Shown here: positions 38,501 to 63,175 of the stretch, in pieces
Layout: every line of letters begins with the position of its first letter
Numbering within the stretch: position 1 is the first letter of the stretch
Virus genome (UHGV): UHGV-0039337
Origin: a virus
DNA: 64,000 bases
Reading direction: 5' to 3' (one strand)
Program-made: the position numbers and the translations under genes
The notes under the pieces: generated by a model
Told to the model about the DNA's origin: nothing
Seen by the model: the letters and a program-made list of their open reading frames with translations, nothing else
Database searches by the model: none

Positions 38501-41500
38501 CAAATAGATAAAATACCTGAAAGTCAATATAATCTTAGTACTCAAAAGAAATATCTTGACACAGGTGAATATATTATGATGTCTAATGGTAACAGATATT
38601 ATGGACTTAAACGTTGGATAAAAGACAGAATTTTATATTGCGATACTTTATTTAATTACACGCCTTCTATTTCAGATTTTATTACAATACGTTCAGGTAT
38701 AACTGGAGAAGCTTATATTGATATCGAAACTTATTCTCCTATGTATTTGACTGTTAGATGGCGTAATGTAATTGACGGAACAGCTGACCAAAAACTTAAG
38801 ATAGGAAGAAATCAAAAAGTTAGATTCCAAGCTGAAGGTTTAAATATACCTTCAAACAAAGACCAAGAAATTATAATTTATGGAGCTAAACATATAAAAA
38901 GCTTTGGTCAATTAGACGGATTAATTCCTATGTATTTATATTTAAATAACGCTACAAAATTAACTAATGTAGAATGCCCGAATGATTCAGAATTATTAGT
39001 TGCTGAAATAGCTAATTGTAGTTATCTACAAAAGGTAGATTTTAGTGGCTGTAGTAGTTTAGGTACATTAGAAAAATATCAAGTTCTCGATGTTAGCGGA
39101 TGTAATAACTTAAGATATTTAAATGCATATGGTACGGTGTTAACGTCTATCAGCACTAATCAATCTGGTGGAAACTTAGTTGAAATGTATGTGCCTAAGA
39201 CATTACAAACATTATCATTGCAAAATCAATATAGTTTAAAAGTTATTGGTATACCTGGTGCGAGTACTTTAGAAAGCACTAAGCTATATGATTTAAAACA
39301 AAACGCTAGTAATATATCAAGCTTTACTCTTATCAATTGTCCTTTAGTTGAAAGATTAACTTATGCTTCAGATTTTACAGTAAACAGTAATTTCTTTGAT
39401 AATTTTACAAATGAACGTAGATCAGCAGAACTTAATTATTTAACTTATACTAAAAATGAGTGGAAACGTTTAATGTATTGGGGAAATGGTTTAGCTAACT
39501 GTTATAATATCAACATAGAAAACAGTTGTCATAATATACCTAGTATGAGCTTTAGAGGTATAAGTAATTTACAGAGTTTGAAACTTAGAGCAATGCCTGG
39601 ATTAAAAACTCTAATGCTTGGAGCTAACTGTTGTGGATACAGATATAATAATGATCCTACTTATGAATCTAATAAATATGATACAGTTGGAGAATTTGAT
39701 TGGGATACATTAAGTATAATAGATTGTCCTAATATAGAAGAATTTAGAATACATGAAATGTATCCATATAATTGGAATGAAGGTTCTAGTGGTAACTTAA
39801 CATATTTTACCTTTAAACCTGGAACAGAATCTATTAACTTAGCTGCTAAATTTCCTAACTTAAAAATATTTGAGTGTAATTGTGCTACACAAAATATACA
39901 TCAAATAATACTTCCTCAATCATTAAAAACTATTATGACTTGTGCATGGAATAATAGACATGATGAGGGTTTTCCTAATGAAGTTAAGATAGAACAATTT
40001 AATATAGATAGTATCTATTTTGAAGGAGAGCATGAAGAAAGCTATACTGGTATAGATTTAGGAAACCACGCGTTACAAAATGTATGTATAATTGCTCCTT
40101 ATGCTTCAGAGTTAATAGGAGTTAATATCACAAATACACATGTAAATCCTATATTTAATGATTTAAAAGAAGCAGATAATGAAAATAGACCATTTGTTAC
40201 TCCTAACGGTAGGATAGATGTATCTAAATTTAAATGGAAAAATATATCTGACTGGTTTGCGTATATAGATTTTACTAAGGGAAAATGTGAAGTTATAACT
40301 CCAACTAACTGGAAAACATTCTTGGTAGGTATACAAAAGGCTAGTAGAATGTTTTATCATTGTACAAATCCTGATTTTACTTGGGAATTTGCTATGGAAT
40401 TCTTTTCTAAGATAAATACCTATTCTGATTTAAGTTATATGTATCAATATGCACAATTAGCAGATCAAGCTGATTTTGATACTGCTGCTGTAGTAATGGA
40501 AAACAAATATAATATAGGCGGATATAACTATAATATAAAACCTTTTCTAGGAACTAATCTTAAATTCGTTAAATCATTTACTTTAACAGCATGTGATGGT
40601 GCATATGCTACATTTAGTGGATGCAGCAGTTTAATTAAAGTAGGAGATTGTAAATTTACAGGATCTAGATCTAGTACATGGGGAATAAGTTATTTATTTA
40701 ATAACTGTATTGCATTAGAAGAAGTAGGAAATATAACTTCTTATGCTAATAAAAATAGTAGTTCTACTATACCAATGGATAATACATTTGAAGGTTGTAA
40801 TAAGTTAAAGAAAATAGGCACATTAGATATATCAGTTAGCAGTATGAACTGTGCTTACTATGATTGTTCTGTATTGGAAGACAATGGATTAAGTTTACCT
40901 TATATGGGAAATTGTGTAGATGTAAGAAATGCATTCTTTGGATGTTATACTTTAACTGCTATTAATTTTGAAACACTTGAAAAGGTTATATATGCTGATG
41001 CATTCTTGCGTAATTGCTATGGATTGTTATCAATACATTTACCAAGCATCAATCGTGATCATCCATTACAAGAATTCTCTAGTGCATTTTCTGGATGTAC
41101 TGCATTAAAGACTATAACTATAGAAGGAGACACATTACCTATAGGATTAAGAAATATGAGCTATGCTTATTCTAATTGTCCATCATTAACTAACGTAATA
41201 CCAGTTCCTTCAGATTTTGTAAATGATGTAGACATGAGTGGATGTTGTAGTCGTTGTAGTTCATTAACAGATGATGCTATATATAAAGAAATACCATTTA
41301 GAGTTGTTAATACCAATTATATGTATGAACGTTGCAATAGTTTAATTTCTCCAACAGTTAATTTATTATGTGACAATGTAACTTCAAAACAAATGTTTAG
41401 ATATTGTGAAAATATGACTAGTTTAACAGTCAATTATAATGGACGTTTATTGCGTGATACTACTTTCTTTGCAGAATATTGCAACAGATTACAAACCGTT

Positions 41501-42040
41501 AATTTTAAATTCCCTAGCGCACTTGTAATGCATGAATACTATGGAACTGGAGTTACTTATTATAATATGTTCCAATATTGTGGTAGTTTATCTATAGTAA
41601 ATCTTAACATGTCTAAATTAGCAGATACTAATTCTAAAGCAGATTTTGGTAGCATGTTCTATGAAGATAAATATATTACAGAAATTCATGGATTAGATTT
41701 TGCTTATCTTAAAAAACCTATACGTAATTTTACTTCTAGTGGTCAAAGTCCTTACGATTGGCATGACACTTCTATTACATATGGTGGTACATATGAAAAC
41801 TTAACAACTTTAGATGTTACAGGTAAATTAACAACAAGCTATAACTTTAAAAATATTGCTACCATGGTTCATACTAAAGTTATTTTACGACACTTAGATA
41901 AAGTAACAAATGAAACATTAGGATTGACATATAATATAGTTGATGCCATAGATGATGAAAAAACAGAATCAGTAGATCAAGAATTAAAAGAATTAGCTAA
42001 TACAGCATTAAGCAATGGTTGGTCATTCATTATAGTATAA
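35591..42040 (+). CDS. giant multi-domain fibre/adhesin (2149 aa): Ig-like repeats, LamG/ConA-like jelly roll, CotH kinase-like domain, C-terminal BspA-type leucine-rich repeats
   Basis: TTAGGAGTTGA SD. LamG-like region about nt 36700-37350. CotH-like region about nt 37590-38650 (FLLYINGELAGVYDFNLDRYSYTAFG and WYFEFYDMDTAMGLDNTG fit the CotH pattern vNGey.GlY.l.E and D.D.tfG). From about nt 40540 to 41700 there are repeated units such as FEGCNKLKKIGTLDIS, AFFGCYTLTAINFETLEKVIYADAFLRNCYGLLSIHLP and FSSAFSGCTALKTITIEG, characteristic of BspA/TpLRR-type leucine-rich repeats. Confidence 0.6.
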   Translation: MPIKKKINGRWVNVTGSSTSTNNTKAINIGITDSLGFYDTDNVEGALAEIGNDLKNTNANIEKVAAELKDHKQNHPGGSGSSGGATLPTITSDFKTTTSDGKSNIEIPIFFTSPSLGDGTAYILVKNVEIATQQIQQGNNTIIVPPIGAGKNINISLYVKDRAGLISNQLTWLITAGGIEMTIITDTKADYDINNRIVISYTISCISNEDIYAHFEIDGKDNQVKSINGYNSYQLTGLTVGVHKISYWAESGDYKTTSKSFNLIIVNEDTLIVSTEFDSDKEYESGIPISIPYRVSITKDEDFTVKMYIDGNLDKTIVTRPTSLYWSITSLDIGNHTLKIEAINDSLNLSNSIEFACHVIEGEYTRVQPVMDASLLCWFDATDKTNNDSDRDVWTDKILGNKGYLHNFNYGSNGWITNDSTHTSELVMDGTCYVEIDMTPFKDNFKNGGTIELVFKVRDVGNVDARVLDITDTISPYKGIYIDTRDAYLATEARTTTASIGEDEYIHVMYEIDRTNKYAHVIVNGVITGSCKLSDSGIGTSAVLESIAHTQKIYLNSQKGTDLFGSCEIKHFRIYDRALSFDEILQNYLSTIEDIKVQKSKVDFNDPLKNIMPIMNITCDPELFSIMTDVNQIEVAMTYTSPNADLYGQTLTTATKCLMYWQGTSSKGYNIHNYNLYLRDDNRQPIAYSPYPNCIPQSLFCLKANLMESTNAHNVGLAGYVRKYLYTHNNPAQDADPRASRVIQGFPFLLYINGELAGVYDFNLDRYSYTAFGYDLPAHKNKCKVYEISANTNKTAGAFIPWSADTGVDEWTWYKNDFGGIYPESIQNSVNDDFTELKNLIKFVHDSNDEKFVTDFETYFDKESVIRYYLFVMVLGLVDSLGKNAKLVTYDGVKWYFEFYDMDTAMGLDNTGAVKFDVDIEMSMGKFNTAESTLWVRLDRLFHDDIVNEYNMMRNQNLTAEKIYECIFTDQIDKIPESQYNLSTQKKYLDTGEYIMMSNGNRYYGLKRWIKDRILYCDTLFNYTPSISDFITIRSGITGEAYIDIETYSPMYLTVRWRNVIDGTADQKLKIGRNQKVRFQAEGLNIPSNKDQEIIIYGAKHIKSFGQLDGLIPMYLYLNNATKLTNVECPNDSELLVAEIANCSYLQKVDFSGCSSLGTLEKYQVLDVSGCNNLRYLNAYGTVLTSISTNQSGGNLVEMYVPKTLQTLSLQNQYSLKVIGIPGASTLESTKLYDLKQNASNISSFTLINCPLVERLTYASDFTVNSNFFDNFTNERRSAELNYLTYTKNEWKRLMYWGNGLANCYNINIENSCHNIPSMSFRGISNLQSLKLRAMPGLKTLMLGANCCGYRYNNDPTYESNKYDTVGEFDWDTLSIIDCPNIEEFRIHEMYPYNWNEGSSGNLTYFTFKPGTESINLAAKFPNLKIFECNCATQNIHQIILPQSLKTIMTCAWNNRHDEGFPNEVKIEQFNIDSIYFEGEHEESYTGIDLGNHALQNVCIIAPYASELIGVNITNTHVNPIFNDLKEADNENRPFVTPNGRIDVSKFKWKNISDWFAYIDFTKGKCEVITPTNWKTFLVGIQKASRMFYHCTNPDFTWEFAMEFFSKINTYSDLSYMYQYAQLADQADFDTAAVVMENKYNIGGYNYNIKPFLGTNLKFVKSFTLTACDGAYATFSGCSSLIKVGDCKFTGSRSSTWGISYLFNNCIALEEVGNITSYANKNSSSTIPMDNTFEGCNKLKKIGTLDISVSSMNCAYYDCSVLEDNGLSLPYMGNCVDVRNAFFGCYTLTAINFETLEKVIYADAFLRNCYGLLSIHLPSINRDHPLQEFSSAFSGCTALKTITIEGDTLPIGLRNMSYAYSNCPSLTNVIPVPSDFVNDVDMSGCCSRCSSLTDDAIYKEIPFRVVNTNYMYERCNSLISPTVNLLCDNVTSKQMFRYCENMTSLTVNYNGRLLRDTTFFAEYCNRLQTVNFKFPSALVMHEYYGTGVTYYNMFQYCGSLSIVNLNMSKLADTNSKADFGSMFYEDKYITEIHGLDFAYLKKPIRNFTSSGQSPYDWHDTSITYGGTYENLTTLDVTGKLTTSYNFKNIATMVHTKVILRHLDKVTNETLGLTYNIVDAIDDEKTESVDQELKELANTALSNGWSFIIV

Positions 42041-46939: not shown

Positions 46940-47227
46940 ACGACCGATAGTACTTCAGCCTAATACTTATTGCGACTAAGATTACTATAATTAAATCTAA
47001 TAATGGTATTATAAAAGGAGTTTTAATATTCAATCTACCTATATAATGCAGCAAACTATGCAGTATATTCTGGTAGCTTAACAATGAAAATTACTTACAC
47101 AGAATAATGTTTAGTTAAATTAACTAAGCAAAGTAATAATATATATGAATGCAGTAATAGGATTAGTCAAATATTAGCTAGTCCTATTATTATGTATATA
47201 TTATTTACAGAGAAAAGGAGAAATATA

Positions 47228-49295: not shown

Positions 49296-49511
49296 TAAAA
49301 ATATAAAAATACAGTTATAAATAATATTTATTTGAAAATAATTAAAAGACAATGTTATGTCAGTTAAGTATTATATTTTAATACACCTTCTTATAATTTA
49401 ATAGGGGGGTGTATTTTATTATGATTTTTTACAATAATAATAAAGAAGAGGCAGAAAAAAATATGGAACAAGTTTATGAATTACTAGCAGAAATTTTAAT
49501 AGAAAGCGAGA

Positions 49512-50906
49512 GTGATAATAATGAAAAATCAATTACTTAATATAGCTTATTTGCGTTGTAGTACAGATGACCAAGATGTAGCACATCAATTATCAAGTAT
49601 AGAAAAATTCTGCGAAAGTCAAAATATAGTTATAGACAAAGTAATTAAAGACGAAGGCGTAAGTGCTTATAGTAAAAGTGCATATGAAAGAAAAGGCTTT
49701 AGTGAAGTAATACATTTAGTAGAAGAAAACAAGGTTAATAAACTTATATTATTCGAATCTTCTAGATTATCTAGAAATTTTCATGAAGGACAAAATTTAA
49801 TTAAATTCTTTAGTGACAAAAGAGTGGAGATATATAGTGTAGTAGATGGTGGTATAATTAATGCTACTGAAGTAGATGAATTATTAAATAGTATTAGGTA
49901 TTGGCTTAATCAAAAAGCCAGTAAAGAAACAAGTGATAGAATTAAAAGTCAAAAAAAGTTAGCTAAATCCAAAGGAGAATTTCTGGGACATCCTGTTCCA
50001 CTAGGATTTAAAATAGAAAACAAGCATGAAATTATAGACGAAGATAAGCGTAATTTTATTATTGAATTATTTAATACTTATATTAATCAAAGTTCTAGAG
50101 CATGTATAGATTTATTAAAAACTATAGGAATCAAAGCTAATCATCAAACGCTATTGCAAAGGATAAAAAATGATAAATATATACAAATAGTAGGAAAAGA
50201 TACTTTTAACAAAGCCCAAGAAACCATACAATCTAGAAGATGTAATAAAGGAAATAATACCAGAACTTTAAACAGGAGTAATATTTTATATGAGGGTTTA
50301 TTATACCATCTATGTGGTAGCAAACTTACAATAGATAAAAATAGAAAAGGTGAACCTGTTTTTAGATGTAGAAGATGCAAACATAATTTAGATATAAATA
50401 TTAAAAAATCTTTTATTGGTAATCCTTTAATGAACAATATTAACAAAGATATGTATGAAATAATCAATAATTTAGATAGGAATAAATTAGAAGAGAAGTA
50501 TAAAGAACGTAATAACAAACAACGCTCAATAATATCTTACAAAATACACGAACTAAAAGCATCTATTAAAAGCAAGAAAAAATCTTATGCTTTAGCTAAT
50601 AATAAATTAGAAAAAATATTAATATCTGATATGGATGATTCACTTATATCTACTGTGGCTAATACTGTTAACAATATAAAAAAAGAGATAGAAGAATTAG
50701 AAAAGGAATTAAATATTGAGCAAGAAAAAATAGATACTATAGACGAACAAGCGAAATTTAATGCTGGTTTAATTAATAAAATAATCAACTTAAAAGATGT
50801 GTATATAAACGGAAGTGACAAGAAAAAGAAGGCTATACTTAACTTTATGATAGATAAAGTAATAGTTTATGACATTGATAAGTTTGATATTTTTTTAAAA
50901 ATATGA
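49512..50906 (+). CDS. large serine recombinase (resolvase catalytic domain, recombinase domain, zinc ribbon, coiled-coil tail)
   Basis: N-terminus LNIAYLRCSTDDQDVAHQ carries the serine-recombinase catalytic motif (R-x-S-T-x-x-Q). A Cys-x2-Cys-x16-Cys-x2-Cys zinc ribbon (CGSKLTIDKNRKGEPVFRCRRCKHN) and a K/E-rich coiled-coil C-terminus follow. At 464 aa it falls in the large-serine-recombinase class (phiC31 Int / TnpX / SpoIVCA), not the small Gin/Hin invertases. The start may be ATG 49521 rather than GTG 49512. Confidence 0.8.
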   Translation: MIIMKNQLLNIAYLRCSTDDQDVAHQLSSIEKFCESQNIVIDKVIKDEGVSAYSKSAYERKGFSEVIHLVEENKVNKLILFESSRLSRNFHEGQNLIKFFSDKRVEIYSVVDGGIINATEVDELLNSIRYWLNQKASKETSDRIKSQKKLAKSKGEFLGHPVPLGFKIENKHEIIDEDKRNFIIELFNTYINQSSRACIDLLKTIGIKANHQTLLQRIKNDKYIQIVGKDTFNKAQETIQSRRCNKGNNTRTLNRSNILYEGLLYHLCGSKLTIDKNRKGEPVFRCRRCKHNLDINIKKSFIGNPLMNNINKDMYEIINNLDRNKLEEKYKERNNKQRSIISYKIHELKASIKSKKKSYALANNKLEKILISDMDDSLISTVANTVNNIKKEIEELEKELNIEQEKIDTIDEQAKFNAGLINKIINLKDVYINGSDKKKKAILNFMIDKVIVYDIDKFDIFLKI

Positions 50907-50984
50907 TGGTTGAGCATTATAATAGTTGTTGCATTTATTATACTTAACCACAAAGGTAATATTTTATAGAAAGGAGCTGATGCA

Positions 50985-52934
50985 ATGGCTAAAAAAGAGC
51001 AGTTTGATGCTTTACAAATAGTAAATGACAGTCTAAAACTTTATGTAAAAGAAAAAATAGCAGAAGCGAAAATATCAGGTGGAGATGTTGATCTTAGTAA
51101 TTATGTTACTAAAATTACAGGTAATGCTAGTCAAATTACTTTTAATGATGGTCAATCTTTTCAAGATAAATTAAATAATGGCACTTTAAAAGGTGATAAA
51201 GGAGACAAAGGTAATGATGGTGCAATTGGACCTCAAGGACCTGCTGGTGAAAAAGGTGACCAAGGTGAAGTAGGGCCTCAAGGACCTGCCGGAGAAAAAG
51301 GAGATACTGGCCCACAAGGACTAGCAGGTGTTGATGGTACACCTGGAGCTAAAGGTGATAAAGGTGAAATTGGAGAACAGGGACCAAAAGGAGATACTGG
51401 ACCTGCCGGTAAAGATGGAGCTGATGGATTAACTACAGCTGTATCTGTTAATGGTGTTACTTATAACCATATTAATGGAGTAATTACATTGCCTAACTAT
51501 CTTAGTCAAATATATAAAACTCCTAAATTTATTACAACAACTACTACTTCATACAAAGATTCGTCAGGTAATACAGGTTTTACAATAGATTTAGGTATTC
51601 CTACGACTTCTGTATTATCTATAGATAGTATAGTTGTTACTGCTAAATATCAAAATACTGATTTAAAAATAACTCATGTAAAATTAGAAAACAATTCAAC
51701 TAATTGGAATTTATTGGCAACAGTAGAGGGATATGATGCTAATCAAAAATATACTGTATCAGTAGCCATATTTAATTATGGAGAAGAATTAACTGTAGCG
51801 GAAGCATTAAATAAATTATTTGCTAAAGTTTATTTAGGTTCTATATCTCCCGCTGGCTCTGGTAGTGGAGAAACTACTACTGAAACATTAACTATAAGCA
51901 ATATAGCAAATATAACACAAAATATTAAAACATCATTCTATATAGAATATAGCACTAATATAGCGGTGACAAAACATGAAGTATCGTGGGATGGTGGAGA
52001 CACATTCTATGATAAAACTGGTGACGTTACTTCTATTGGTAATAATCATAAGTTTTTACATGACGATAAAGCAAATGCTGGAACATATAACATGGCTATA
52101 AGAGTTACAACTGCTAAAGGTACAACTAAGACAAGTAATATATTTACTGTTACTTTAGTAGATAATAGTGAAGATGAATATGCTATGTCTTGTACTTCTG
52201 AATATATTCTAGACAAGATGTATCCAATGCCACAAAACCATGAAGCAGTACCGAGTGGTGTTACTGATACATGGGCTACTCAATCTCGTTGGGAGAATCA
52301 ACAAAGACCTACTGCCGCAGCACATAACTGTGGTCAAGCGAATTGTCCAGGAGCAGTACAATTTAAAGCTTTAGGTGCTTGGGCTAATGTATATAGAGTA
52401 AAAGATTCAGGATTTAGTTCTAATACTGGAGTTGAAATGAGAAACATAAAAGTTTACGGATGGTATAATGGTCAATGGGAAAAAGTACAAGATATGGCTG
52501 TGCCTGATGGTAATTTTTACACTGAAAGTTTCTCTGGAGATAGTAATCAATACTTTAGTGACAGTATTAAAACTACAAGCACTAGTAAAACTATAATTTT
52601 AAGAGAAAAAAATAAGGTTAATGGTGAAAACTGCATGTACCACCCATTCTCAAAAATAAAGAATTTTGATGTAAAATATGAATATGTATATACTTGCATA
52701 GATTTACGTAAGGTCAAATGGGATGAAAGTGGAGTAGATGATAGAGATAGTTCTCATTACTGTGCAAGTTGTGGTGGTGACTGGTGGTTAGCTGAAGGGT
52801 TAACATTTGATAGTAGTTGGCAACATAACAAAGGTGTAGCCCAACCTAAGATAATAGAAATTACAAATAAGTGGAGAAGATTCTCTATGACTACTGTTCC
52901 ACAAGACTGGACAAGTGGGTTTCCCACCAAATAG
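50985..52934 (+). CDS. collagen-like fibre protein (649 aa)
   Basis: GAAAGGAGCTGA SD. About 80 residues of uninterrupted G-X-Y triplets ([79 protein letters not shown]). Contains a module ([22 protein letters not shown]...TVTLVDN) paralogous to a segment of the 53692 gene. Confidence 0.6.
51192..51428 (+). repeat. collagen G-X-Y triplet repeat coding region
   Basis: Tandem ggNNNNNNN triplet codon periodicity visible in the sequence. Confidence 0.7.
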
Positions 52935-53685
52935 TGATAGTGAAAATGAAACTGTAACAGTTGATGCTCTAGAAATATTGCCTTCATTTACTTATGCTGA
53001 TATTCCAGAAGAAGGAACTAAAAATTTATATGTAAAATTATCTAGTAAACCAGATTCAGATATTATAGTAAATACTACTTCATCATCACAATATTTATCT
53101 TGTTCACCTTCTTCATTGACTTTTACAAATACAAATTGGAGCGTATCACAAAAAATAGCTATAAGCTCATTAAAAGATAATAATGAATCTGATGATACAT
53201 ATAATATAACATTGTCATCAAATGATTTATCTTCTAAAGTTTCAATAGAAGTTACTGATGCTTCTAATAGCAATTATGAAATGTTATATGATAATGGTGT
53301 ATTATCTCATGGTACTTTGACTTTAAACAATGCTACAAATTATGGAAGCTATATTACAATAACTCAAAACGAAAATTCTTCTGTTATGATAAGTGGTTAC
53401 CCTATATCATTAAATAAAAATGATAAGGTTTATTTACAGTTAGGATTAGACACATCAGACCCAGCTTCTACATATTCTATAAAAATAGGTCAACTTGGAG
53501 ACTCATCAGCTAATGACATAAGTAATAGTAATATGCTTACAGAGCAACAAATATCAAACGCATTAGATGGTGATAAAATATTAACATATTGGACTGTAGC
53601 AAATGCAGTATCAAATATTGATTTAACCATTACATCATATTATGCTAGAGTTAAAATTTATAAGATATATATTGAAAGGGGGTAG
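52915..53685 (+). CDS. fibre C-terminal module ORF; possibly expressed as a +1 frameshift extension of the collagen-like gene
   Basis: GTG start overlaps the last 20 nt of the previous gene in the +1 frame. There is no SD upstream. The +1 frame is open from 52891. The product ([39 protein letters not shown]...[13 protein letters not shown]) is paralogous to an internal module of the 53692 gene. Confidence 0.4.
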
Positions 53686-53691
53686 TAATTT

Positions 53692-56600
53692 ATGGCTAAT
53701 CAAATAATAAATTCAAAAAATTTAACTTCAAAAGAAATTCCAGAATTATATATAAGATATTTTAATTCAAAGGTAAAAATAAATACAGATATAACTATTC
53801 CTTATTATGTATCAGATAATACTCAAGCTGAATATCTAAATAATAGTAATGCTAAAAGTTTTACAACTATAGTTACATTTAATTCAAAAGTATTTTCCAG
53901 CACTACTACTGCTGGAGAATTTACTATTAATATAGGGTCTGTATCTACTGTAGGAGAAACTTATTTTAGTATTTATACTATAGATAACAATGGTGTTGCT
54001 AGCGCGGAACAATTTTTTGATATACTAATTATAGATGATACATATCCAATAACTCAAAGTCAAACTTACACTATGACTTCAGCAGATTTATCTACTTACA
54101 ATATAAAAGCTGGAGAGTCTGTATCTATAAGTGATGCTAAATTAAACGGAGCATCTTTAATAAGTTTATTTAAAGGAGTTAAAGATAAAGGTTATAGAAA
54201 AATTATAATGCTTAATAATATCTATATGCTAGATTACCATGGAAATAAAGTTATTCTTCCAGACCAATTTACTGTGGATATGAATGGGGCAACTTTTAAA
54301 GCTACACAATGTAATGATATAAATGTAGCTAATTTAGTAGATTTAAGAGATTGCTTTGATTCTCATGTAATAAACGGAAAACTAATTGGTAATTATGATG
54401 GATTTGATTTTGCGGCAACAAAAACTAATACTAATTATAACATACCTGGAGAAGGATTGGCTGTTGCTGAAATTAATGGTGCTAGATATTCTTCATTTGA
54501 AAATATGGATATGTCTTACTCAGTAGGGTATAACTTAGGAGTTTTCGGTGGAAAAAAATCAGGGTATGTTGGAACTCCAGGAAAATTAGCTTTTAAGAAT
54601 CAATACTATATTGATGCCAATGGAAATCAAGTAAATAGTTCAGATATGTGTACAACTGATATTATAGATATTTCTACTTTATTAGACAGAGGAGAGTTAC
54701 AATGTAGTGTATATTTAGGATATGGAGGATTATCATTAGATAAAGCAGAATTATTTATACATTTTTACGATAGCTCTCAAAAATATCTAAAAACTATAAA
54801 AACTAGACAATATCAAATAGTAAAGATTCCTGCAGGAGCAAATTATGTAAGAATAACTGGGTTTACTTCTGTAACTGAATCTTCTGGTTTAACTATATGT
54901 TGTACAGGACAAGCGACTAATTGTGAATTAATAAATATAAAATCTCATAATACCAGAACTTGTGCTATGCATCCAGGAATTTATAATCATCTGCTTATAA
55001 AAGATTGTACATTCAACAAAGTTGCAGATGAGAATGAATATAAAGTAACTAAATTAGCTTTAGACTTTGAAGATGGATATGAAAACGGAAGAAATTTATT
55101 CTTTATAAATAATGAAGTATATGATGGGACTTCAGCACTAACAGTTCAGAGATGTTTTAATTGTAATGTTATTAAGTGTAGAAATTTTGGATTAGACTTA
55201 AGAGGACATATAAAAGGAGCTTTAATTAAAAATAATTTCTTTAATGAAGGAAGCATATATACAACTAATTTTGATTCCCAATCTCATATGAAATTAGATA
55301 ATAATACATTCTTCAGATCTTTGAAATTTTTAAAATGGGATGATAAAGGAAATTACCCTACAGTAGGATTGACTAATTTAGACTGTAAACAAAATTATCA
55401 AAATAATTCTAATACTAATGTAGTAATAGATAATGCTGTTAATGGAAGTGGTAGTGGAGGAGCTCCATCTCAAACATATTATAATATTATAAATAATATA
55501 TCAAATTGTACTACTGATAATAGTGATAATTTAGTATTGAAAGATTCTTCATATAAAGCTACGATAACTCCAAAGAGTGGATATGATATAACTTCAATAA
55601 CTGTAACTATGGGTGGAGTTGATATAACTTCTACTGCATTATCTGGACATACGATAAATATAGAAAAAGTTACTGGAAATGTTAATATAAATGTAACTAC
55701 TAAAGAAATAGAAAGTTATAGAATAACAAATAATTTAACTAATTGTACAAATTCAAACACTACAAGTAGCATATTAAAGAATAAAAGTTATAGTGGTACT
55801 ATAGTATCTAATGAAGGATATGATTTATATAGTATAACAGTAACAATGGATGGAACCGATATAACTTCATCTTCTGTAAGTGGAAATTCTATAAATGTAT
55901 CTAGTGTAACCGGAGATATTATTATAACAGCTGTATGTACTACAGAAGTGACTGAGGTTATATATGACAACGGTACTCTAAATAAAGGTACATTTAAATT
56001 GAAGAATGCTACTGCTGAGAGTACTTATATCAGAATAAATCAAAATCAAGATTCTTCTGTTACTATAAATGATTATAAATTAACTTTGAATAAAAATGAT
56101 AAAGTTTATATGGATATAGGATTAGATACTGATAGTCCATCAAATGGATATTCTATAAGAATGCTTCAATTAGGAGATTCTTCAGTAAACAATTTTACAA
56201 ATACAAATATGATAAATGAATCTCAAATATCTACTGCTTTAAATGGTAAAGATAAAGTTACTATATATTGGACTATAGCAAACACAGTATCTAATATTGA
56301 TTTAACATTAACATCATATTTTGCTAGAGTTAAAATATTTAAAATTTGGATAGATAAAAATTCTACCGAATCTGGAGGTGGAGGAACCACTCCAGAAACA
56401 TTAACTATTAGTAATATATCCAACATGACACAACCTGCTCAAACAGAATTTTATATAGAATATACTACAAATATAGCTGTAGTAAAACATGAAGTGTCAT
56501 GGGACGGCGGTAACATGTTCTATGATAAAACTAGCGATGTAACTTCTAATGGAACATCATATAAATTTAAACATGATAATGCAGGAACTGCTGGAACATA

Positions 56601-58026
56601 CAAAATGGCTATAAGGGTTACTACTTCAAGTGGAGAAACTGTAACAAGTAATATATTCACAGTTACTTTAATGAATGATAATGGATTAGTTTTCACGCAG
56701 TATAAAAAATTAGATGATGGTGTAGTTACAGATACTACGGATACGAAATACCATAGTACTATTAATAAAATATCAGTAACTCCATCAGCAAAATATACAC
56801 TTGATCTAAAACCTGTAAGTTATGTTTGTATATGTTTCTATGATAATAATGACACTTATTTAGGTAATAATTCAGGGGGATACATAGAAAACCATACATC
56901 AGATTGGTCAGTTGGTTCATTATCAACAACTTTTACTGTGCCAGCTAGTGCTTCATATATTAGAGTATGTGGTACAACTGATGATACACAAGTAACAGGA
57001 ACACTAACTAAATCTTCTTCTGGTACAGGTACAAGTACAAGTGAATTATTAGATAGTGATGGCGCTTACGTTATAGATGATTTCTCAAGTAACACAATAG
57101 ATTCTAATAAATGGTCATATGAATTGGGTTACGTAAGAAATAATGAAACTCAAAGATATACAAATACAAACGCTGAAGTCAACGACGGTATATTAGCTTT
57201 AAGAGGTTTAAAGGCCAGTGATGGTTCATGGACATCTGCATCTATTATTTCAAAAGGTCACTTCGCCTTCATGTATGGTAAAATAGTTGCCAGAGTTAGG
57301 GCTTGTAACTTAAATGGAGCATTTGGAGCATTTTGGACTTTAGGTGATTCATTTGAATTTGGATATAAAGAAAATGGTAGTCCTGATACATTAGGTGAGT
57401 GGTGGGCATACTGTGGTGAGTTTGACGTTATGGAATTTTACAATGGAAAATTGACTTGTGGCACTTTCTTCAATCAAAAGGAAGAAAGTGGACGTGTATG
57501 GTACAACAATTATCCAACTGGTGATTGGCATGAATTCGCAATGGAATGGAAAACTGACGGTACATTAATTTTTACTATTGATGGTAATGAGTTAAGTAGA
57601 ACAAACGCAACAGATAATAGAGCATTCCATATACCACACTTTATACTACTTAATCAAGCAATTGGTGCTAGTGGTGGTACTCCTGATAGTAATACTACAG
57701 AAATCACTCAATACGTTGACTGGGTTAAATATTATCCACTAAGTACCGATAACGTAGTATTAAATTCTAGTGACTTTACACTAGCTGCTATGGATGCTAA
57801 TGATAGTTCACATAACTGTATGGTAAGACCTACTTTTAATGACAACTGTATTAATAAATCATTAACATGGAGTTCTAGTAATGATAGTCTTGTATGGGTT
57901 CATAGTGGATTATGTAGTACTTATGCAGGAGCTAATGGTGAAGTAATAATAACTGCCACTTCACACTCAGGTGTATCAAAACAAATTACATTAACAGTAG
58001 CAGACGGAATACTACGTGCTAAATAA
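53692..58026 (+). CDS. fibre/tailspike with right-handed beta-helix region, duplicated modules, GH16 (laminarinase-type) glycoside hydrolase domain and C-terminal Big_2 domain (1444 aa)
   Basis: GAAAGGGGGTAG SD. Beta-helix-like region NCELINIKSHNTRTCAMHPGIYNHLLIKDCTFNKV..CFNCNVIKCRNFGLDLRG. GH16-like region about nt 57070-57745 carries the E-x-D-x-x-E catalytic motif within GEFDVMEF, flanked by WTSASIISKG and WHEFAMEW. C-terminal Big_2 segment (SLTWSSSNDSLVWVHSGLCSTYAGANGEVIITATSHSGVSKQITLTV). Confidence 0.6.
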   Translation: MANQIINSKNLTSKEIPELYIRYFNSKVKINTDITIPYYVSDNTQAEYLNNSNAKSFTTIVTFNSKVFSSTTTAGEFTINIGSVSTVGETYFSIYTIDNNGVASAEQFFDILIIDDTYPITQSQTYTMTSADLSTYNIKAGESVSISDAKLNGASLISLFKGVKDKGYRKIIMLNNIYMLDYHGNKVILPDQFTVDMNGATFKATQCNDINVANLVDLRDCFDSHVINGKLIGNYDGFDFAATKTNTNYNIPGEGLAVAEINGARYSSFENMDMSYSVGYNLGVFGGKKSGYVGTPGKLAFKNQYYIDANGNQVNSSDMCTTDIIDISTLLDRGELQCSVYLGYGGLSLDKAELFIHFYDSSQKYLKTIKTRQYQIVKIPAGANYVRITGFTSVTESSGLTICCTGQATNCELINIKSHNTRTCAMHPGIYNHLLIKDCTFNKVADENEYKVTKLALDFEDGYENGRNLFFINNEVYDGTSALTVQRCFNCNVIKCRNFGLDLRGHIKGALIKNNFFNEGSIYTTNFDSQSHMKLDNNTFFRSLKFLKWDDKGNYPTVGLTNLDCKQNYQNNSNTNVVIDNAVNGSGSGGAPSQTYYNIINNISNCTTDNSDNLVLKDSSYKATITPKSGYDITSITVTMGGVDITSTALSGHTINIEKVTGNVNINVTTKEIESYRITNNLTNCTNSNTTSSILKNKSYSGTIVSNEGYDLYSITVTMDGTDITSSSVSGNSINVSSVTGDIIITAVCTTEVTEVIYDNGTLNKGTFKLKNATAESTYIRINQNQDSSVTINDYKLTLNKNDKVYMDIGLDTDSPSNGYSIRMLQLGDSSVNNFTNTNMINESQISTALNGKDKVTIYWTIANTVSNIDLTLTSYFARVKIFKIWIDKNSTESGGGGTTPETLTISNISNMTQPAQTEFYIEYTTNIAVVKHEVSWDGGNMFYDKTSDVTSNGTSYKFKHDNAGTAGTYKMAIRVTTSSGETVTSNIFTVTLMNDNGLVFTQYKKLDDGVVTDTTDTKYHSTINKISVTPSAKYTLDLKPVSYVCICFYDNNDTYLGNNSGGYIENHTSDWSVGSLSTTFTVPASASYIRVCGTTDDTQVTGTLTKSSSGTGTSTSELLDSDGAYVIDDFSSNTIDSNKWSYELGYVRNNETQRYTNTNAEVNDGILALRGLKASDGSWTSASIISKGHFAFMYGKIVARVRACNLNGAFGAFWTLGDSFEFGYKENGSPDTLGEWWAYCGEFDVMEFYNGKLTCGTFFNQKEESGRVWYNNYPTGDWHEFAMEWKTDGTLIFTIDGNELSRTNATDNRAFHIPHFILLNQAIGASGGTPDSNTTEITQYVDWVKYYPLSTDNVVLNSSDFTLAAMDANDSSHNCMVRPTFNDNCINKSLTWSSSNDSLVWVHSGLCSTYAGANGEVIITATSHSGVSKQITLTVADGILRAK

Positions 58027-58121
58027 TAGATGATATCGGCAGTAATAATGAGAAGTAAAATAAAGAAATATTTTATTATATATAGCGTTAATATCATATT
58101 TATAAAATGTTTAATATAACG

Positions 58122-58148
58122 AGAGGTCTTTTACAGACCTCTTTTATT
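58122..58148 (+). terminator. rho-independent terminator
   Basis: AGAGGTCT / AGACCTCT stem (8 bp), loop TTTAC, then TTTATT. Confidence 0.65.
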
Positions 58149-58200
58149 ATTTATTCACTTACCGGTAATATTTCAATGAATGAAAGGAGTGATAATTCAT

Positions 58201-58713
58201 ATGTCAGATAATTTAATACATCCTTATTACAATCATGGTTATGCCCGTTATGATATAGATATTAATGATGTAATAGCTGGTCTTAAAAAAGCCGGATATA
58301 TATTAGATGATTCAGATAACGATACGGATGATAATTTTGATAATTTAGACTCTAGCTTAAGGCTTGAAGTGTTAAGCACTCGTGGCACACGTTGTAATAG
58401 TACAGGATTTAATACAATATTATACCCTAGATTATATAAAAATAATATAGATATAACAGATGAAGTACCTGTTAGTAATTTTAAATGGAGAAGAGTTAGT
58501 GGCAATAGTGAAGTAGCTCGTCTTGAGGATGCCGAATGGAATTTACGTTATGCTAATGGTTCTAAAGAATGTTACGTTACAAAAGATGATATAAAACGTA
58601 ACAGTACATTTACATGTTTATATGTAGAATATGAATATCAAGATGTAGCTTATGTTAATACAGCGTATAAAGCTTATATAAATAATGCAAATTTAAATGG
58701 TGGTGATAATTAA
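58201..58713 (+). CDS. hypothetical tail protein (170 aa)
   Basis: ATG 58201 after GAAAGGAGTGA (track start 58180 lies inside the SD). Stop overlaps the next start (TAATG). Confidence 0.4.
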   Translation: MSDNLIHPYYNHGYARYDIDINDVIAGLKKAGYILDDSDNDTDDNFDNLDSSLRLEVLSTRGTRCNSTGFNTILYPRLYKNNIDITDEVPVSNFKWRRVSGNSEVARLEDAEWNLRYANGSKECYVTKDDIKRNSTFTCLYVEYEYQDVAYVNTAYKAYINNANLNGGDN

Positions 58714-60197
58714 TGGCTTATGAAAAGGTAAAAGCCACTGCTTCAGTTACAATAGTAGATGAAACTGATGCTTCGATACTTACTGGTAATATGCTTGTAG
58801 TTAAAGGTAGTAAGAATCAGATATATATAACAGGTCAAGGTAATCCTTATTCTCCTGACTGGACTAAAAACAATCTTGTTATTCGTCCTTTCTTACAGGC
58901 TAGTAATATTACTAAAGAAGATTCAACTAATGTTGAATACAATCCTGATTTATTTGATCCTAAAGAATATCCTAATTCTATATCTACTTATGGATATATA
59001 CGTGATATACATTGGTTTATTCGTGATAATGCGGGAGTAGAAAAAGAGTTACTTGATTCTAGTGATTGTTCTTTCTCTTATTCTTACAATATAGATGGTA
59101 TTGCTACTATGTGTACTGATGGAAGACAATTAGTAATTAGGGCTAACATGCTATCTAAAAATACTACTGCAGATATAGTATGTAAATTTAGTTTTTATGA
59201 TCCATTTGCTAATATGTATATTAGTCAGCAACTTGAAACTACTATAATTAATATTGCGAGTGGTCAATCTAACAGTAAACTATTAACATCTTGTGTTAAC
59301 GGTAGCGCAATAACCAATACAGGAAATTCATATATAGATATTATAGCTAAATTTTATGATGATACTGGAGAAATAAATATAGATGAATTAATAAGTAATG
59401 GTGATGCTAACGTATCATGTTTATGGTATATAAGACGTTATGATGGATGGATACTATTAGATCCAACAGAAGCTGGTCAAAGCTCAGCTAATATAGATAC
59501 TATGATGTATAAAATAATGAGAGTTAACTCATATAATGATGTTAGCGGTACATATGAATTAGTCGATTCTAATAATGCAAAAGGTAATGCAGCACTTCGT
59601 ATTTATCCTGCATTTATATCAGGATCTGAAATAATTAAATGTGTATTTACCGATCCTACTGGAGCTAAATATAATTCATTACAAGTAATATATGATGCAA
59701 CTGATCCTACTAGTGTTGAATTATATTGTAGTAACGGTAAAAGACTTAAAAAAGGTAGTATAGAAAATACTACTGTTAAAGCTATCGTTACTTATAAAGG
59801 TAGTCTATTGGAAGATGATAGCCCATTATACAATACAGAATTTGATTATTATTGGTATAAATATACTATAACAGATGATGTATATGTTAATGTATATAAT
59901 GATGCCAACAATAATCTTATAGAGAACGCTGATTTAAACAATCCTATAAAAGGTAAAAGAACTTTATTTATTAATACAGATGCTATTACATCTGATGAAA
60001 AGGAAGCGCGTTTTAGTCTTGATTTAGTTGAATATGGTGCTTTATCTGCTGAAAGTGCACAGGCTAATTATTTAGCCAATGCTGTATCAGAAGAAGATTT
60101 AGCTACTGCTATGGCTGTTAATAATAATATTGGTATGAATGAAAATGATGTGCAAGCTGCTATTGTTACAGCACAAGAATTAAATACTTTAGAGTAG
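58713..60197 (+). CDS. distal tail protein (494 aa), N-terminal paralog of the 60209 gene
   Basis: GGTGGTGA SD. N-terminus MAYEKVKATASVTIVDETD parallels MAYTALAKASVTIELFENE of the next gene. Confidence 0.45.
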   Translation: MAYEKVKATASVTIVDETDASILTGNMLVVKGSKNQIYITGQGNPYSPDWTKNNLVIRPFLQASNITKEDSTNVEYNPDLFDPKEYPNSISTYGYIRDIHWFIRDNAGVEKELLDSSDCSFSYSYNIDGIATMCTDGRQLVIRANMLSKNTTADIVCKFSFYDPFANMYISQQLETTIINIASGQSNSKLLTSCVNGSAITNTGNSYIDIIAKFYDDTGEINIDELISNGDANVSCLWYIRRYDGWILLDPTEAGQSSANIDTMMYKIMRVNSYNDVSGTYELVDSNNAKGNAALRIYPAFISGSEIIKCVFTDPTGAKYNSLQVIYDATDPTSVELYCSNGKRLKKGSIENTTVKAIVTYKGSLLEDDSPLYNTEFDYYWYKYTITDDVYVNVYNDANNNLIENADLNNPIKGKRTLFINTDAITSDEKEARFSLDLVEYGALSAESAQANYLANAVSEEDLATAMAVNNNIGMNENDVQAAIVTAQELNTLE

Positions 60198-60208
60198 GAG
60201 GTGTAATT

Positions 60209-63175
60209 ATGGCCTATACTGCTTTAGCTAAAGCTAGCGTTACAATAGAACTATTTGAAAATGAAGATAAATATGAAGCTATAGTAGTTTCTACTAATGG
60301 TGTTATATTACAACCATATGATACATCTACTACTCTTATAGGTACTGTATTAAAAAATAATATAGATGTGACTAAAAACATTAGTAATTTAAAATGGACC
60401 AAATGGAATCCTACTACTGATAATCTTGAAGAATGTGAAGACTGGAATAAATCTCATATTGGCTCTTCAAGTATAGTTATAACTAAAGATGATGTTAATA
60501 GTAAAAGTATATTTAGTTTTGAGGCCTACAATAATAAAAATGAATTATTGTGTTCTACTACTATATCTATAATAGATATAAATGATTTACTAACTTCAAC
60601 TACGAAACCTAGTAATCCTTATATTGGTCAGTTATGGATAGATGATACTACAGATCCTGCTAATCTATATGTATGGAATGGTTATAAATGGATAATATCT
60701 GGAGCTATAGGTGTTGTAGTAAAAAATCTTTTACGCAATACAGGTTTTATATATAATTGTGATAAATGGGATATAGTAGGAGATACAAAATTAATGTATA
60801 CCCCTGTACCGCATTCATATCTTGAACATAGATTTCTTAAATTAAATAGTGATGTACTAACAGATAGTATTCGTGGTATAACACAAACAACAATAGATAC
60901 TATAGTTCCTAAAAGTGATTATAGTCTTCAGATGTTGTTTTATTCTAAAGAAAATAGTCAGTCATATTCAAATAACATATCAGTTAATGTATATTCTGTT
61001 GATTCATCTAATAATGAAATTATAGTATATAGTAATATTATAACTGCAGAAGAAAAACTTAAGAGGATATGTGCCCGTTTTAAAAGTCTAAACAATACAA
61101 AAGCTTTTAGAGTACAAATTACGGGAGAAAATAAATATAGATTTGATTTTAATATAGCAGAATTATGTTTATACAATACTAGCAATGAATATCCATGGAC
61201 TGTTAATCCTTCAGACAATAATGAAAATCTTACTCAAGAAAACTTATGGAATATATTGTCCAATAATAATACTGTTAAAGGTATTTTTTCTATAAAGAAT
61301 TCTGAAACTGGGCAACTTGATTATTATATTAATGCCGATGCTATTATTGCTGGGCAAATAAAAGCACAATACATGAATTTGTACGGATTAAGCATAACAC
61401 GTAAAGATGATCCTAGTATTAAGACATTTGAGGTTACAGAAGATGGTTATATAAACATTGCAGTTAATGAATTAAAGATAGGCGCATCTAATAAAACTTT
61501 AGAAGATTATATAAATACAGAAATTAATATTGACGGAGATAGTATAAAAGCAGAATTACGTAATGAGTTTAATGAAAAGTATACTAAAATAGGAGCAACT
61601 ATAGACGGAATAAACACAGAGGTATCTGATTTAAAAGGCGACGCTAAAACTTTATTTGATATTACTAATAAAGGTATATATATAAAAACTAATGCAGATG
61701 GTTCTAATACATTAGTAGATATTAATAATAAAAGTTTTAGTGTTAGTTCGGAAAATATAAAGTTAGAAGGTTATACTACTATTAATGGAGGCTTTAGCGT
61801 AGATCTTGATGGTAATATGACAGCTAATAATGGTAAGTTTACTGGTACTATTATATCTTCTACTATAAAATCTGATGATACTGACGATCCACAATTTAGT
61901 CTTACTCCTGACGGTACATTAAGAGCTAATAATGTACATGTTAAAGGCGAAATAAGTGGTAAAATACCTGATTTAGAAAAGCTTGTTAGTGGAAGTGGTA
62001 AATTTACTGTAAATGAAAATGGAGTATTGGAAGCCGAAGAAGCTATTATACATGGAGATATAACTTCGGGTTCTACAATAACAGGCTCTACTATTCGTAA
62101 TGTTACTGGAACATTTAAAATAGATAAAAACGGTAATATAAAAGGTGGTTCTTTTGATATAAATGATAAGTTTAAAGTTGATTCATCAGGGAACATGACA
62201 TCTACATCAGCTAATATAGTAGGTAATATAAATGCAGGATCTAAAATTAATGGTGCTACTATATATATACCTGGTAAAGATGAAGGTTATTCAGAAAACA
62301 TATATGATATAACAATAGAAAATGGACATATGACTATGAGTAATAGACTGTATCCTGATGATCAATATTTAAATATAAAATCTAATTCTTTAAATAATCA
62401 GGCTATTAAAGATATAACTGATTCCGAAAATAAGTATGCATATAGTATATACGATGAAATGTTTTTATCAGAAGGTACGTTGGCTTTTAATAAAAGAAAA
62501 TATGATAAGTACTATGGAAATCCTTATAATAAATATGATTCTTATACATTTACAATGTGGAGCACTGATCATTTTGAAATTAACGATGGATGGATGCGTG
62601 GAAACGATTTAGTATGTATTAATAATATACGACATCAGCCAGCAGCAAAATATCAAGACTCTAACGAAGGTGATATCATATATAAAGGAGAAAGCAATAC
62701 ATTTGTAGCTGATCATTTCGATAAAGGTTTTAATACTATTGGCGATTTTAGTGGCTCAGGAATCAATAAAGGAAATGGCGTACTTACACTAGGCGATTGT
62801 GTGTTATTATATGGCTCAGCTGATTTTACCAATTTAGAAGCAGATACTCCAAATAGTAAGGCTATAAACTTTGATGATATATATGAATATGTATATAGTT
62901 CAAATCCTTTATCAGATGCTCCATATGTTACTTTATCTATTAATAGCTATACTCCTTCTATGTTTTCATGTAGTGTCGCTGATATAACAAGAAACGGATT
63001 CAATATTTACTGCAATAGTAAACTTGGTTCAGCAGTAACTGTACATTGGATGGCAATAGGTATAAGTAAGACAAGAACATTTGCTTATAAGATATACGAA
63101 AACTTTGCTACTCTTGACAATGTTCAATTAATGAGCGGTGCATATGATAAAGAAAAAGCTAAATTATTCTATTAA
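60209..63175 (+). CDS. tail fibre / host-specificity-type protein (988 aa)
   Basis: GTAGGAGGTG SD. PSNPYIGQLWIDDTTDPANLYVWNGYKWI is the LW..LYVWNG.W motif recurrent in phage distal-tail and fibre proteins. Confidence 0.5.
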   Translation: MAYTALAKASVTIELFENEDKYEAIVVSTNGVILQPYDTSTTLIGTVLKNNIDVTKNISNLKWTKWNPTTDNLEECEDWNKSHIGSSSIVITKDDVNSKSIFSFEAYNNKNELLCSTTISIIDINDLLTSTTKPSNPYIGQLWIDDTTDPANLYVWNGYKWIISGAIGVVVKNLLRNTGFIYNCDKWDIVGDTKLMYTPVPHSYLEHRFLKLNSDVLTDSIRGITQTTIDTIVPKSDYSLQMLFYSKENSQSYSNNISVNVYSVDSSNNEIIVYSNIITAEEKLKRICARFKSLNNTKAFRVQITGENKYRFDFNIAELCLYNTSNEYPWTVNPSDNNENLTQENLWNILSNNNTVKGIFSIKNSETGQLDYYINADAIIAGQIKAQYMNLYGLSITRKDDPSIKTFEVTEDGYINIAVNELKIGASNKTLEDYINTEINIDGDSIKAELRNEFNEKYTKIGATIDGINTEVSDLKGDAKTLFDITNKGIYIKTNADGSNTLVDINNKSFSVSSENIKLEGYTTINGGFSVDLDGNMTANNGKFTGTIISSTIKSDDTDDPQFSLTPDGTLRANNVHVKGEISGKIPDLEKLVSGSGKFTVNENGVLEAEEAIIHGDITSGSTITGSTIRNVTGTFKIDKNGNIKGGSFDINDKFKVDSSGNMTSTSANIVGNINAGSKINGATIYIPGKDEGYSENIYDITIENGHMTMSNRLYPDDQYLNIKSNSLNNQAIKDITDSENKYAYSIYDEMFLSEGTLAFNKRKYDKYYGNPYNKYDSYTFTMWSTDHFEINDGWMRGNDLVCINNIRHQPAAKYQDSNEGDIIYKGESNTFVADHFDKGFNTIGDFSGSGINKGNGVLTLGDCVLLYGSADFTNLEADTPNSKAINFDDIYEYVYSSNPLSDAPYVTLSINSYTPSMFSCSVADITRNGFNIYCNSKLGSAVTVHWMAIGISKTRTFAYKIYENFATLDNVQLMSGAYDKEKAKLFY

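Follow-up and report, generated by a model that had tools for sequence, protein, structure and literature searches.

Why does a gene for a large serine recombinase (LSR) sit in the midst of the tail-fiber genes of a phage? The question is posed by the UHGV virus genome UHGV-0039337, of which a stretch of 64,000 nucleotides (hereafter the window) was analyzed. A first reading of the bare letters, called here the sequence-only reading, had placed the gene between two fiber genes on the same strand, and among its explanations were an integrase with its phage attachment site (attP) in an adjacent spacer and a recombinase that rearranges fiber cassettes. We favor the former, at a probability of roughly 55%, in the form of a functional serine-integrase module whose attP would lie at 50907-50950 and which a jumbo phage would have acquired and now carries between two of its fiber operons. 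As proposed, the module would consist of a terminator-like hairpin, a micro open reading frame (micro-ORF) of 39 amino acids (aa), a 461-aa LSR and a 44-bp attP-type site that abuts the LSR stop codon.

The recombinase and its candidate attachment site

The LSR open reading frame (ORF) lies on the + strand and ends at 50906; it can begin at a GTG (49512) or an ATG (49521), giving a protein of 464 or 461 aa, of which the 461-aa ATG form (49521-50906) is the version found in public gene calls. The protein carries the motif YLRCSTDDQ, and it matches the Resolvase family of Pfam (PF00239, E 1.6e-22) and PHROG 95 'integrase' (E 4e-47). A catalytic domain with Ser14 (residues ~1-150) is followed by a recombinase domain (~163-239), a zinc ribbon (~260-299, with H263, C265, C283 and C286) and a coiled coil (~320-430). 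The AlphaFold2 model has a predicted local distance difference test score (pLDDT) of 86.7. In it, the catalytic domain includes a long E helix, residues 163-239 form a helical domain, 260-299 a beta-rich zinc ribbon and 320-430 long paired helices; the top Foldseek matches of the model are the full-length integrases of SPbeta, Bxb1 and LI. ORF, Pfam and PHROG matches and model thus confirm the recombinase with RCSTDDQ motif, zinc ribbon and coiled coil that had been described from the letters.

To place the protein in its family, we aligned 31 members from metagenomes, which are 32-97% identical to the window LSR. Residues R12, S14, R57, E79, S81, R82, R85, C265 and C286 are invariant throughout this alignment, and so the catalytic serine, whose absence on careful alignment had been named as grounds for abandoning the assignment, is present in all 31 sequences. 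The family profile aligns over residues 51-447 to positions 66-514 of the SPbeta integrase SprA (E 4e-11), and also aligns to the phiC31 integrase. Between strains, the ratio of non-synonymous to synonymous substitution rates (dN/dS) of the LSR is 0-0.10; it reaches ~0.10 in two comparisons, the same value as for the neighboring 500-aa structural gene, and one strain comparison has 15 synonymous and 0 non-synonymous codon differences. Because the catalytic residues are invariant, the profile and structure matches agree and dN/dS is low, we conclude that the window encodes an intact LSR under purifying selection. Its identity to the phage LSRs of INPHARED is ~21-30%, and no close plasmid homologue was found.

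The LSR is flanked by non-coding spacers of 216 nt upstream (49296-49511) and 78 nt downstream (50907-50984), and a search of these for imperfect inverted repeats of ~40-50 bp, advised by the sequence-only reading, located one of the expected size. It is a 44-bp imperfect palindrome without strand, TGGTTGAGCATTATAATAGTT-GT-TGCATTTATTATACTTAACCA, at 50907-50950, with the central dinucleotide GT at 50928-50929. When a 21+2+21 pattern was sought within 140-150 nt past the LSR of each family member, the top dyad of the window began at the first base past the LSR stop codon, with 14 of 21 positions paired. A GT-centered dyad also stands at the LSR stop in the two closest LSR-bearing relatives, L003 and L001, where it is the top or equal-top candidate at an offset of 0-2 nt. 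At the same offset from the stop, dyads with other centers hold that rank in further members: AC in L020, L022 and L023 (up to 17 of 21 pairs), TC in L009/L038, L039 and L040 (up to 16 of 21) and AA in L017. Support for a stop-abutting dyad is clear in three LSR clades and weaker in further members. All four centers (GT, AC, TC and AA) are non-palindromic.

The two arms of the dyad co-vary. In register, Watson-Crick pairs fill 145 of the 210 cells from 10 sites (69%), versus 21-32% when the arms are shifted by 1-3 nt, and none of 5000 shuffles attained the observed count. The arm sequences differ among clades, with both arms changing together, and the symmetry is highest at the outer 15 positions, as expected for a non-hybrid site. 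Between strains the dyad is invariant save for two bases beside the center, and the GT is never altered. The sites were chosen as best dyads and hence could carry a selection bias; bias is an unlikely cause of the signal, given how constant the offset is and how large the excess. Folding of the downstream spacer as RNA is not significant (z -0.8 to +1.1), and in the third clade a genuine terminator is located past the dyad, so that the dyad is distinct from a terminator. The 21+2+21 geometry gives 44 bp, equal to the attP of phage A118, which is reported to need sequence information over 44 bp, around an asymmetric crossover of 2 bp (PMC3556126). From its position, covariation, geometry and lack of RNA structure, we therefore read 50907-50950 as a candidate attP by comparison with its counterparts in the family.

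An asymmetric motif near the center, ATAAATGC, lies in the gene-distal arm in the GT-centered clade of the window and in the gene-proximal arm in the AC-centered clade of L020, L022 and L023; between these clades, the dyad thus seems to have opposite orientations with respect to the LSR gene.

The upstream spacer and a portable module

The spacer lengths, an 8-bp inverted repeat and a run of six guanines (G6) upstream of the LSR are all present as first described, and what changed is their interpretation. The repeat (AATACACC at 49380-49387 and GGTGTATT at 49408-49415) is the top of a 15-bp RNA hairpin (49380-49415, + strand), which a terminator scan also flagged. Four of its 15 pairs are G-U, its loop has 6 nt, and a U-rich tract comes directly after the stem. 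The folding energy of the hairpin is -20.5 kcal/mol (z = -7.0), and none of 200 shuffles is as stable. L003 and L001 have a hairpin at the equivalent position in which the stem interiors differ, and other clades have ordinary GC-rich terminators there. The idea that this repeat could be an attachment site was rejected on these grounds, since G-U pairs with a U tract, varied stems in close relatives and terminators in other clades fit an RNA hairpin better. The hairpin looks like the terminator of the upstream fiber operon.

Just 5' of the hairpin is a weak sigma-70-like promoter match, AAGACA-17-TATTAT (49346-49374, + strand; 9 of 12 in a consensus scan), in a region that L003 and L001 share in part; transcription of the micro-ORF and LSR may begin here. 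The G6 run (49404-49409) lies within the 3' arm of the hairpin and forms the Shine-Dalgarno sequence for an ATG at 49421. In the mechanism we propose, the hairpin would both end the upstream fiber operon and hide the ribosome-binding site (RBS) of the micro-ORF, resulting in low recombinase expression. One contig recovered from three samples (L064), 100% identical to the window up to that point, ends at window position 49404, at the G6 run in the hairpin; the assembly probably broke off at this structure.

The micro-ORF itself had been given 25 codons in the sequence-only reading and in fact has 39, from the ATG at 49421 to the stop at 49540 (+ strand, MIFYNNNKEEAEKNMEQVYELLAEILIESESDNNEKSIT). 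Its last 20 nt, in frame +2, lie inside the LSR gene. A homologous ORF of 34-51 aa, always in frame +2 and overlapping the LSR start, was present at all 18 family loci examined (for example, L001 9907-10011, L003 2592-2708, L004 957-1067, L017 6448-6564, L020 9901-10023 and L023 3529-3657), with a consensus of roughly M-I-F/Y-Y-N-x-N-x-E-E-x3-L-E-x-L-Y-x-L-L-I-D-I-L-L-E and then an acidic tail. Its conservation at the protein level is comparable to that of the LSR, strains differ by 3 synonymous and 0 non-synonymous codons, and public gene callers annotate it; Pfam and PHROG searches with the peptide returned no family. A programmed frameshift fusing micro-ORF and LSR is not favored, as the overlap varies in length (8-67 nt) and the loci have no slippery motif obviously in common. 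The simplest reading is that the micro-ORF would be translationally coupled to the LSR, and we speculate that its peptide could be a cofactor or regulator of the recombinase.

Further out in the family, the LSR recurs in phages that otherwise have little in common with the window. Of the window proteins compared, it alone has full-length homologues in the phages of other clades, the remaining hits being short fiber-domain segments, and the micro-ORF and dyad accompany it across clades. At ~50% LSR identity, the module is found between tail genes (a tape-measure-like protein, a fiber) and genes for a helicase or for Arc-like or helix-turn-helix regulators; at ~38% identity, it follows an Amidase_2 lysin on phage contigs of ~40-77 kb. 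Both are classic integrase positions. Within the window clade, L001 and L003 (64% and 76% LSR identity, respectively) continue with homologues of the 177-, 494- and 988-aa genes that lie downstream in the window. A comparison of related phages for presence or absence of the LSR, also recommended at the outset, was informative: three IMG/VR jumbo contigs (L049-L051; 253, 265 and 188 kb) have the order fibers, terminator, promoter-like box and a 167/514/1547-aa block, with no LSR within 8 kb on each side of the matched gene. Because these related jumbo phages keep the fiber genes without the LSR, the module is best seen as having been inserted into the jumbo lineage at the boundary between operons. 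By these comparisons, micro-ORF, LSR and dyad form a portable, self-contained module, probably acquired horizontally.

In several unrelated phages, homing endonuclease genes lie a few kilobases from the module: GIY-YIG in L023 (2460-3416), HNH in L004 (2496-3233; also in L005) and L041 (10716-11588), and LAGLIDADG in L020 (609-1229). This suggests that the module settles in plasticity spots.

Such mobility raises the alternative of a selfish or hitch-hiking passenger, selected for itself and serving no chromosomal lysogeny, which might target plasmids or other phages or act rarely. In favor of a passenger, the LSR is the sole full-length protein common to phages of different clades, its micro-ORF and dyad travel along, homing endonuclease genes lie near its sites of residence, and there are sister phages that lack it; an integrated form turned up in none of the data sets scanned. 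Against it, there is a single site and no second end was found with which the 1.7-kb module could excise itself; a lone symmetric site of the attP type is how an integrase that carries a whole replicon is laid out, and the dN/dS of the LSR is that of a structural gene. We consider a passenger a minority possibility, and prefer the integrase module.

Fiber genes and the proposed rearrangement

To test for rearrangement of the fiber genes, we collected 29 contigs with the exact LSR or a cluster mate of at least 90% identity, by look-ups anchored on the LSR, the cluster mate and the upstream 500-aa gene, the last of these serving to avoid ascertainment bias. On every contig long enough to judge (more than 20 of the 29), there is one gene order: the 500-aa gene, the micro-ORF, the LSR and a collagen-like fiber. 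No inversion, excision or loss of the LSR was seen on these contigs. The fiber ORFs are all on the + strand and the repeated modules among them are direct, and therefore no invertible segment is present. A search of the window with a half-site weight matrix and for the core found no second att-like half-site above chance; the best candidate (47159-47179) scored 15.0, which 10 of 30 random sequences attained.

The surroundings are as first described only in part. Same-strand genes flanking the LSR match tail-fiber PHROGs, and the 649-aa gene downstream has collagen repeats; the upstream 500-aa gene has no PHROG match of its own. Immediately past the dyad, a promoter/RBS-like box (GGTAATATTT..AAGGAG, 50955-50984, + strand) precedes the 649-aa fiber gene. 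It is a diverged copy of a second box at 58164-58196, upstream of the 177-aa gene, and the two boxes are the only exact matches to GGTAATATTT in the window; both align with the LSR-downstream spacers of L003 and L001 in a four-way alignment. Between the boxes is an extra fiber cassette of 7.2 kb (50985-58163), lying between the dyad and a conserved block and absent from L003 and L001, in which the LSR is followed directly by a 170-aa gene. By blastn, L003 joins the equivalents of window 49334-50998 and 58164-61408 contiguously. The cassette holds three + strand fiber genes of 649 (collagen repeats), 256 and 1444 aa (50985-58026) and is closed by an intrinsic terminator at 58121-58143 (+ strand; 9 pairs, 4 of them G-C, then a T tract, by scan). 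A hybrid att site at the right-hand junction of the cassette was also considered: the sequence there has some likeness to the right arm of the dyad and no GT center in register, and the repeated promoter/RBS box fits better.

Beyond the cassette, the conserved downstream operon (58180-63175, + strand) encodes tail-fiber or tail proteins of 177, 494 and 988 aa, by PHROG matches, and is syntenic by tblastn in relatives with and without the LSR (47-78% aa identity in L001 and L003, 38-44% in the LSR-less L049-L051). It has a distant match to SPO1-type Bacillus phage tail fibers.

Paralogous fiber modules of 70-80% identity occur at 51858-52157/56371-56670, 53285-53453/55961-56129 and 53572-53675/56251-56354; common to the 649-, 256- and 1444-aa genes, they lie as direct repeats. 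Among strains whose LSR is identical or nearly so, the collagen-like fiber gene varies at a point equivalent to window ~52154, with either a 1.6-kb insertion (L030 4700-6321; L032 2801-4422) or a 1251-aa version with a Glyco_hydro_16 domain (L052 5465-9220). These strain differences are insertions inside the gene, starting ~1.2 kb from the dyad.

The sequence-only reading had proposed that the LSR rearranges, captures or excises fiber cassettes, which would shift host range. The region beside the dyad is indeed the most variable of the locus, with a three-gene cassette missing from L001 and L003, a collagen-like fiber gene that varies between strains and paralogous fiber modules. Yet the cassette is bracketed by the promoter/RBS box and not by att halves, the variation between strains begins well away from the dyad and within a gene, and the dyad is symmetric (non-hybrid) and stands beside non-fiber genes in other clades. 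With one arrangement, one strand, direct repeats only and no second half-site above chance, fiber switching is unsupported, and we give this explanation the least credence of those weighed here. Nor does the protein resemble a small invertase, as it has 461 aa with the C-terminal domains of an LSR and no inverted pair of sites. A serine transposase of the TnpX/TndX type fits no better, there being a single dyad 3' of the LSR and an upstream repeat that is an RNA hairpin of unrelated sequence.

These results also refine the integrase proposal as it was first put. An attP in an adjacent spacer is favored, in the form of the dyad at the LSR stop; the accompanying claim that integration would split the fiber operon does not hold, because the site is at an operon boundary, with the hairpin/terminator upstream and the promoter-like box downstream.

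Possible integration of a jumbo phage, and known systems

The exact LSR protein was found on 16 ENA/Logan contigs, and cluster mates of at least 90% identity on many others. The longest contigs, from independent assemblies, measure 269,929, 270,949, 271,414 and 272,813 bp; the bulk metagenome assemblies behind L025, L026 and cluster members P0047, P0050 and P0057 converge on 270-273 kb. Because independent assemblies converge, we regard ~271 kb as the complete genome of a jumbo phage, for which no near DNA match exists among deposited phages. Its base composition of 29% G+C, its AAGGAG ribosome-binding sites and the distant fiber homology to SPO1-type Bacillus phages point to a probable Firmicutes host. 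Searches for tRNAs and Rfam families returned none.

Two regions of the window (141-8561 and 35591-42040) encode giant structural-region proteins. A non-specific endonuclease domain (Endonuclea_NS_2) is found in the one of 2806 aa, and a CotH kinase domain in the one of 2149 aa, together with weaker, sub-threshold matches to LRR_5 and Laminin_G_3.

Integration of this genome into a host would follow from the family membership of the LSR and the architecture of its site. By analogy with other LSRs, dimers of the enzyme would bind the two 21-bp arms of 50907-50950 and synapse with a bacterial attachment site (attB) having the same GT center. Cleavage at the GT (50928-50929), subunit rotation and religation would follow, leaving a prophage bounded by the LSR on one side and by the 649-aa fiber operon on the other.

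Several observations weigh against this picture. The convergence of assemblies on 270-273 kb indicates free phage genomes. No attL, attR or attB was seen: those of the 29 contigs that are long enough run phage-to-phage across the dyad, and no hybrid junction occurs at any family locus. Scans of genome, viral and metagenome collections, together with the anchored look-ups, found no integrated copy of any family member. A search of 185,579 species-representative genomes with a single peptide pattern, and therefore not exhaustive, gave one family member, on a phage-like 30-kb contig of a metagenome-assembled genome. No repressor or other lysogeny gene was found within the 64-kb window, and Pfam PF07508 gives no score on the window LSR, scoring only on distant family members. 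In one survey of jumbo phages, 80% were predicted to be virulent and 2.3% were seen as prophages (PMC13037316). One site, that of L037, was considered as a possible hybrid and rejected, since the alignment keeps the dyad symmetry at the clade level, as in an attP variant.

A phage that is always found unintegrated, at ~271 kb in bulk metagenomes, and has one highly symmetric site beside its LSR might instead be maintained extrachromosomally and use that site on its own genome, circularizing terminally redundant DNA or resolving replicon multimers, as Cre-lox does for P1. The exclusion of identical sites is established knowledge for LSRs, and the coiled-coil domain that enforces the attP x attB rule is present in the model of the window protein. 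Characterized LSRs recombine efficiently only attP with attB and not identical sites (PMC3556126). Single-site resolution therefore strikes us as improbable, and the integrase module is again the preferred explanation.

A bolder proposal goes further than the module: the ~271-kb jumbo phage would lysogenize by means of its divergent LSR, and the acidic 34-51-aa peptide would be a new, clade-specific minimal partner, either a directionality factor or a gate on expression or activity. We regard this combination as tentative and, on balance, unlikely.

Were the module active, it would imply a temperate or integrating lifestyle in a gut jumbo lineage whose sisters are without an integrase, and ~271 kb would be among the largest natural cargoes of a serine integrase. 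Serine integrases are wanted for the insertion of very large DNA, and a natural 271-kb carrier with a possible tiny cofactor would, if true, be worth testing. The locus adds an LSR clade of at most ~30% identity to the known phage LSRs found, together with a predicted 44-bp attP. It also illustrates how a hypervariable receptor-binding locus can take in, at an operon boundary, an integration module that is no switching device. Should it prove to be no more than an ordinary integrase in an unusual location, its interest is modest. Within the known LSR class, the system is noteworthy for its jumbo-phage genome, its stop-abutting site and its conserved micro-ORF.

Comparison with known systems sets the module among the integrases. 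The small invertases Gin, Cin, Pin and Hin share with the window LSR the chemistry of serine recombinases and a position beside tail-fiber genes. Unlike it, they have ~190 aa with a C-terminal helix-turn-helix and are without recombinase, zinc-ribbon and coiled-coil domains, and they need two inverted crossover sites around a segment with oppositely oriented fiber ends, of which there are none in the window. As in the window, the integrase of Giles and Bxb1-type mycobacteriophages directly follows, or lies among, the virion structure genes; in the window, however, further fiber operons lie downstream, and the phage is roughly five times as large. The Giles integrase is of the tyrosine type.

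The SPbeta integrase SprA (YokA) is both the best profile match (E 4e-11) and the best structural match (9dxd and 9dxh, E 4e-15) of the window LSR, at 545 aa compared with 461 aa. SPbeta is a large Firmicutes phage (134 kb) with giant structural proteins like those of the window phage. As a prophage, it interrupts a host gene, and it encodes its small recombination directionality factor (RDF), SprB (YotN), far from the integrase. In phage A118, attB lies in comK and there is a separate RDF, Gp44. The A118/LI integrase, an LSR of 452 aa, is similar to the window LSR in size and domain order, and the structure of LI bound to an attP half-site (4kis) is among the Foldseek matches. The known phage LSRs found are only ~21-30% identical to the window protein, and a further difference is the micro-ORF that overlaps the integrase start in the window. 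The A118 attP, with a 2-bp crossover in 44 bp (PMC3556126), matches the 21+2+21 dyad at the LSR stop.

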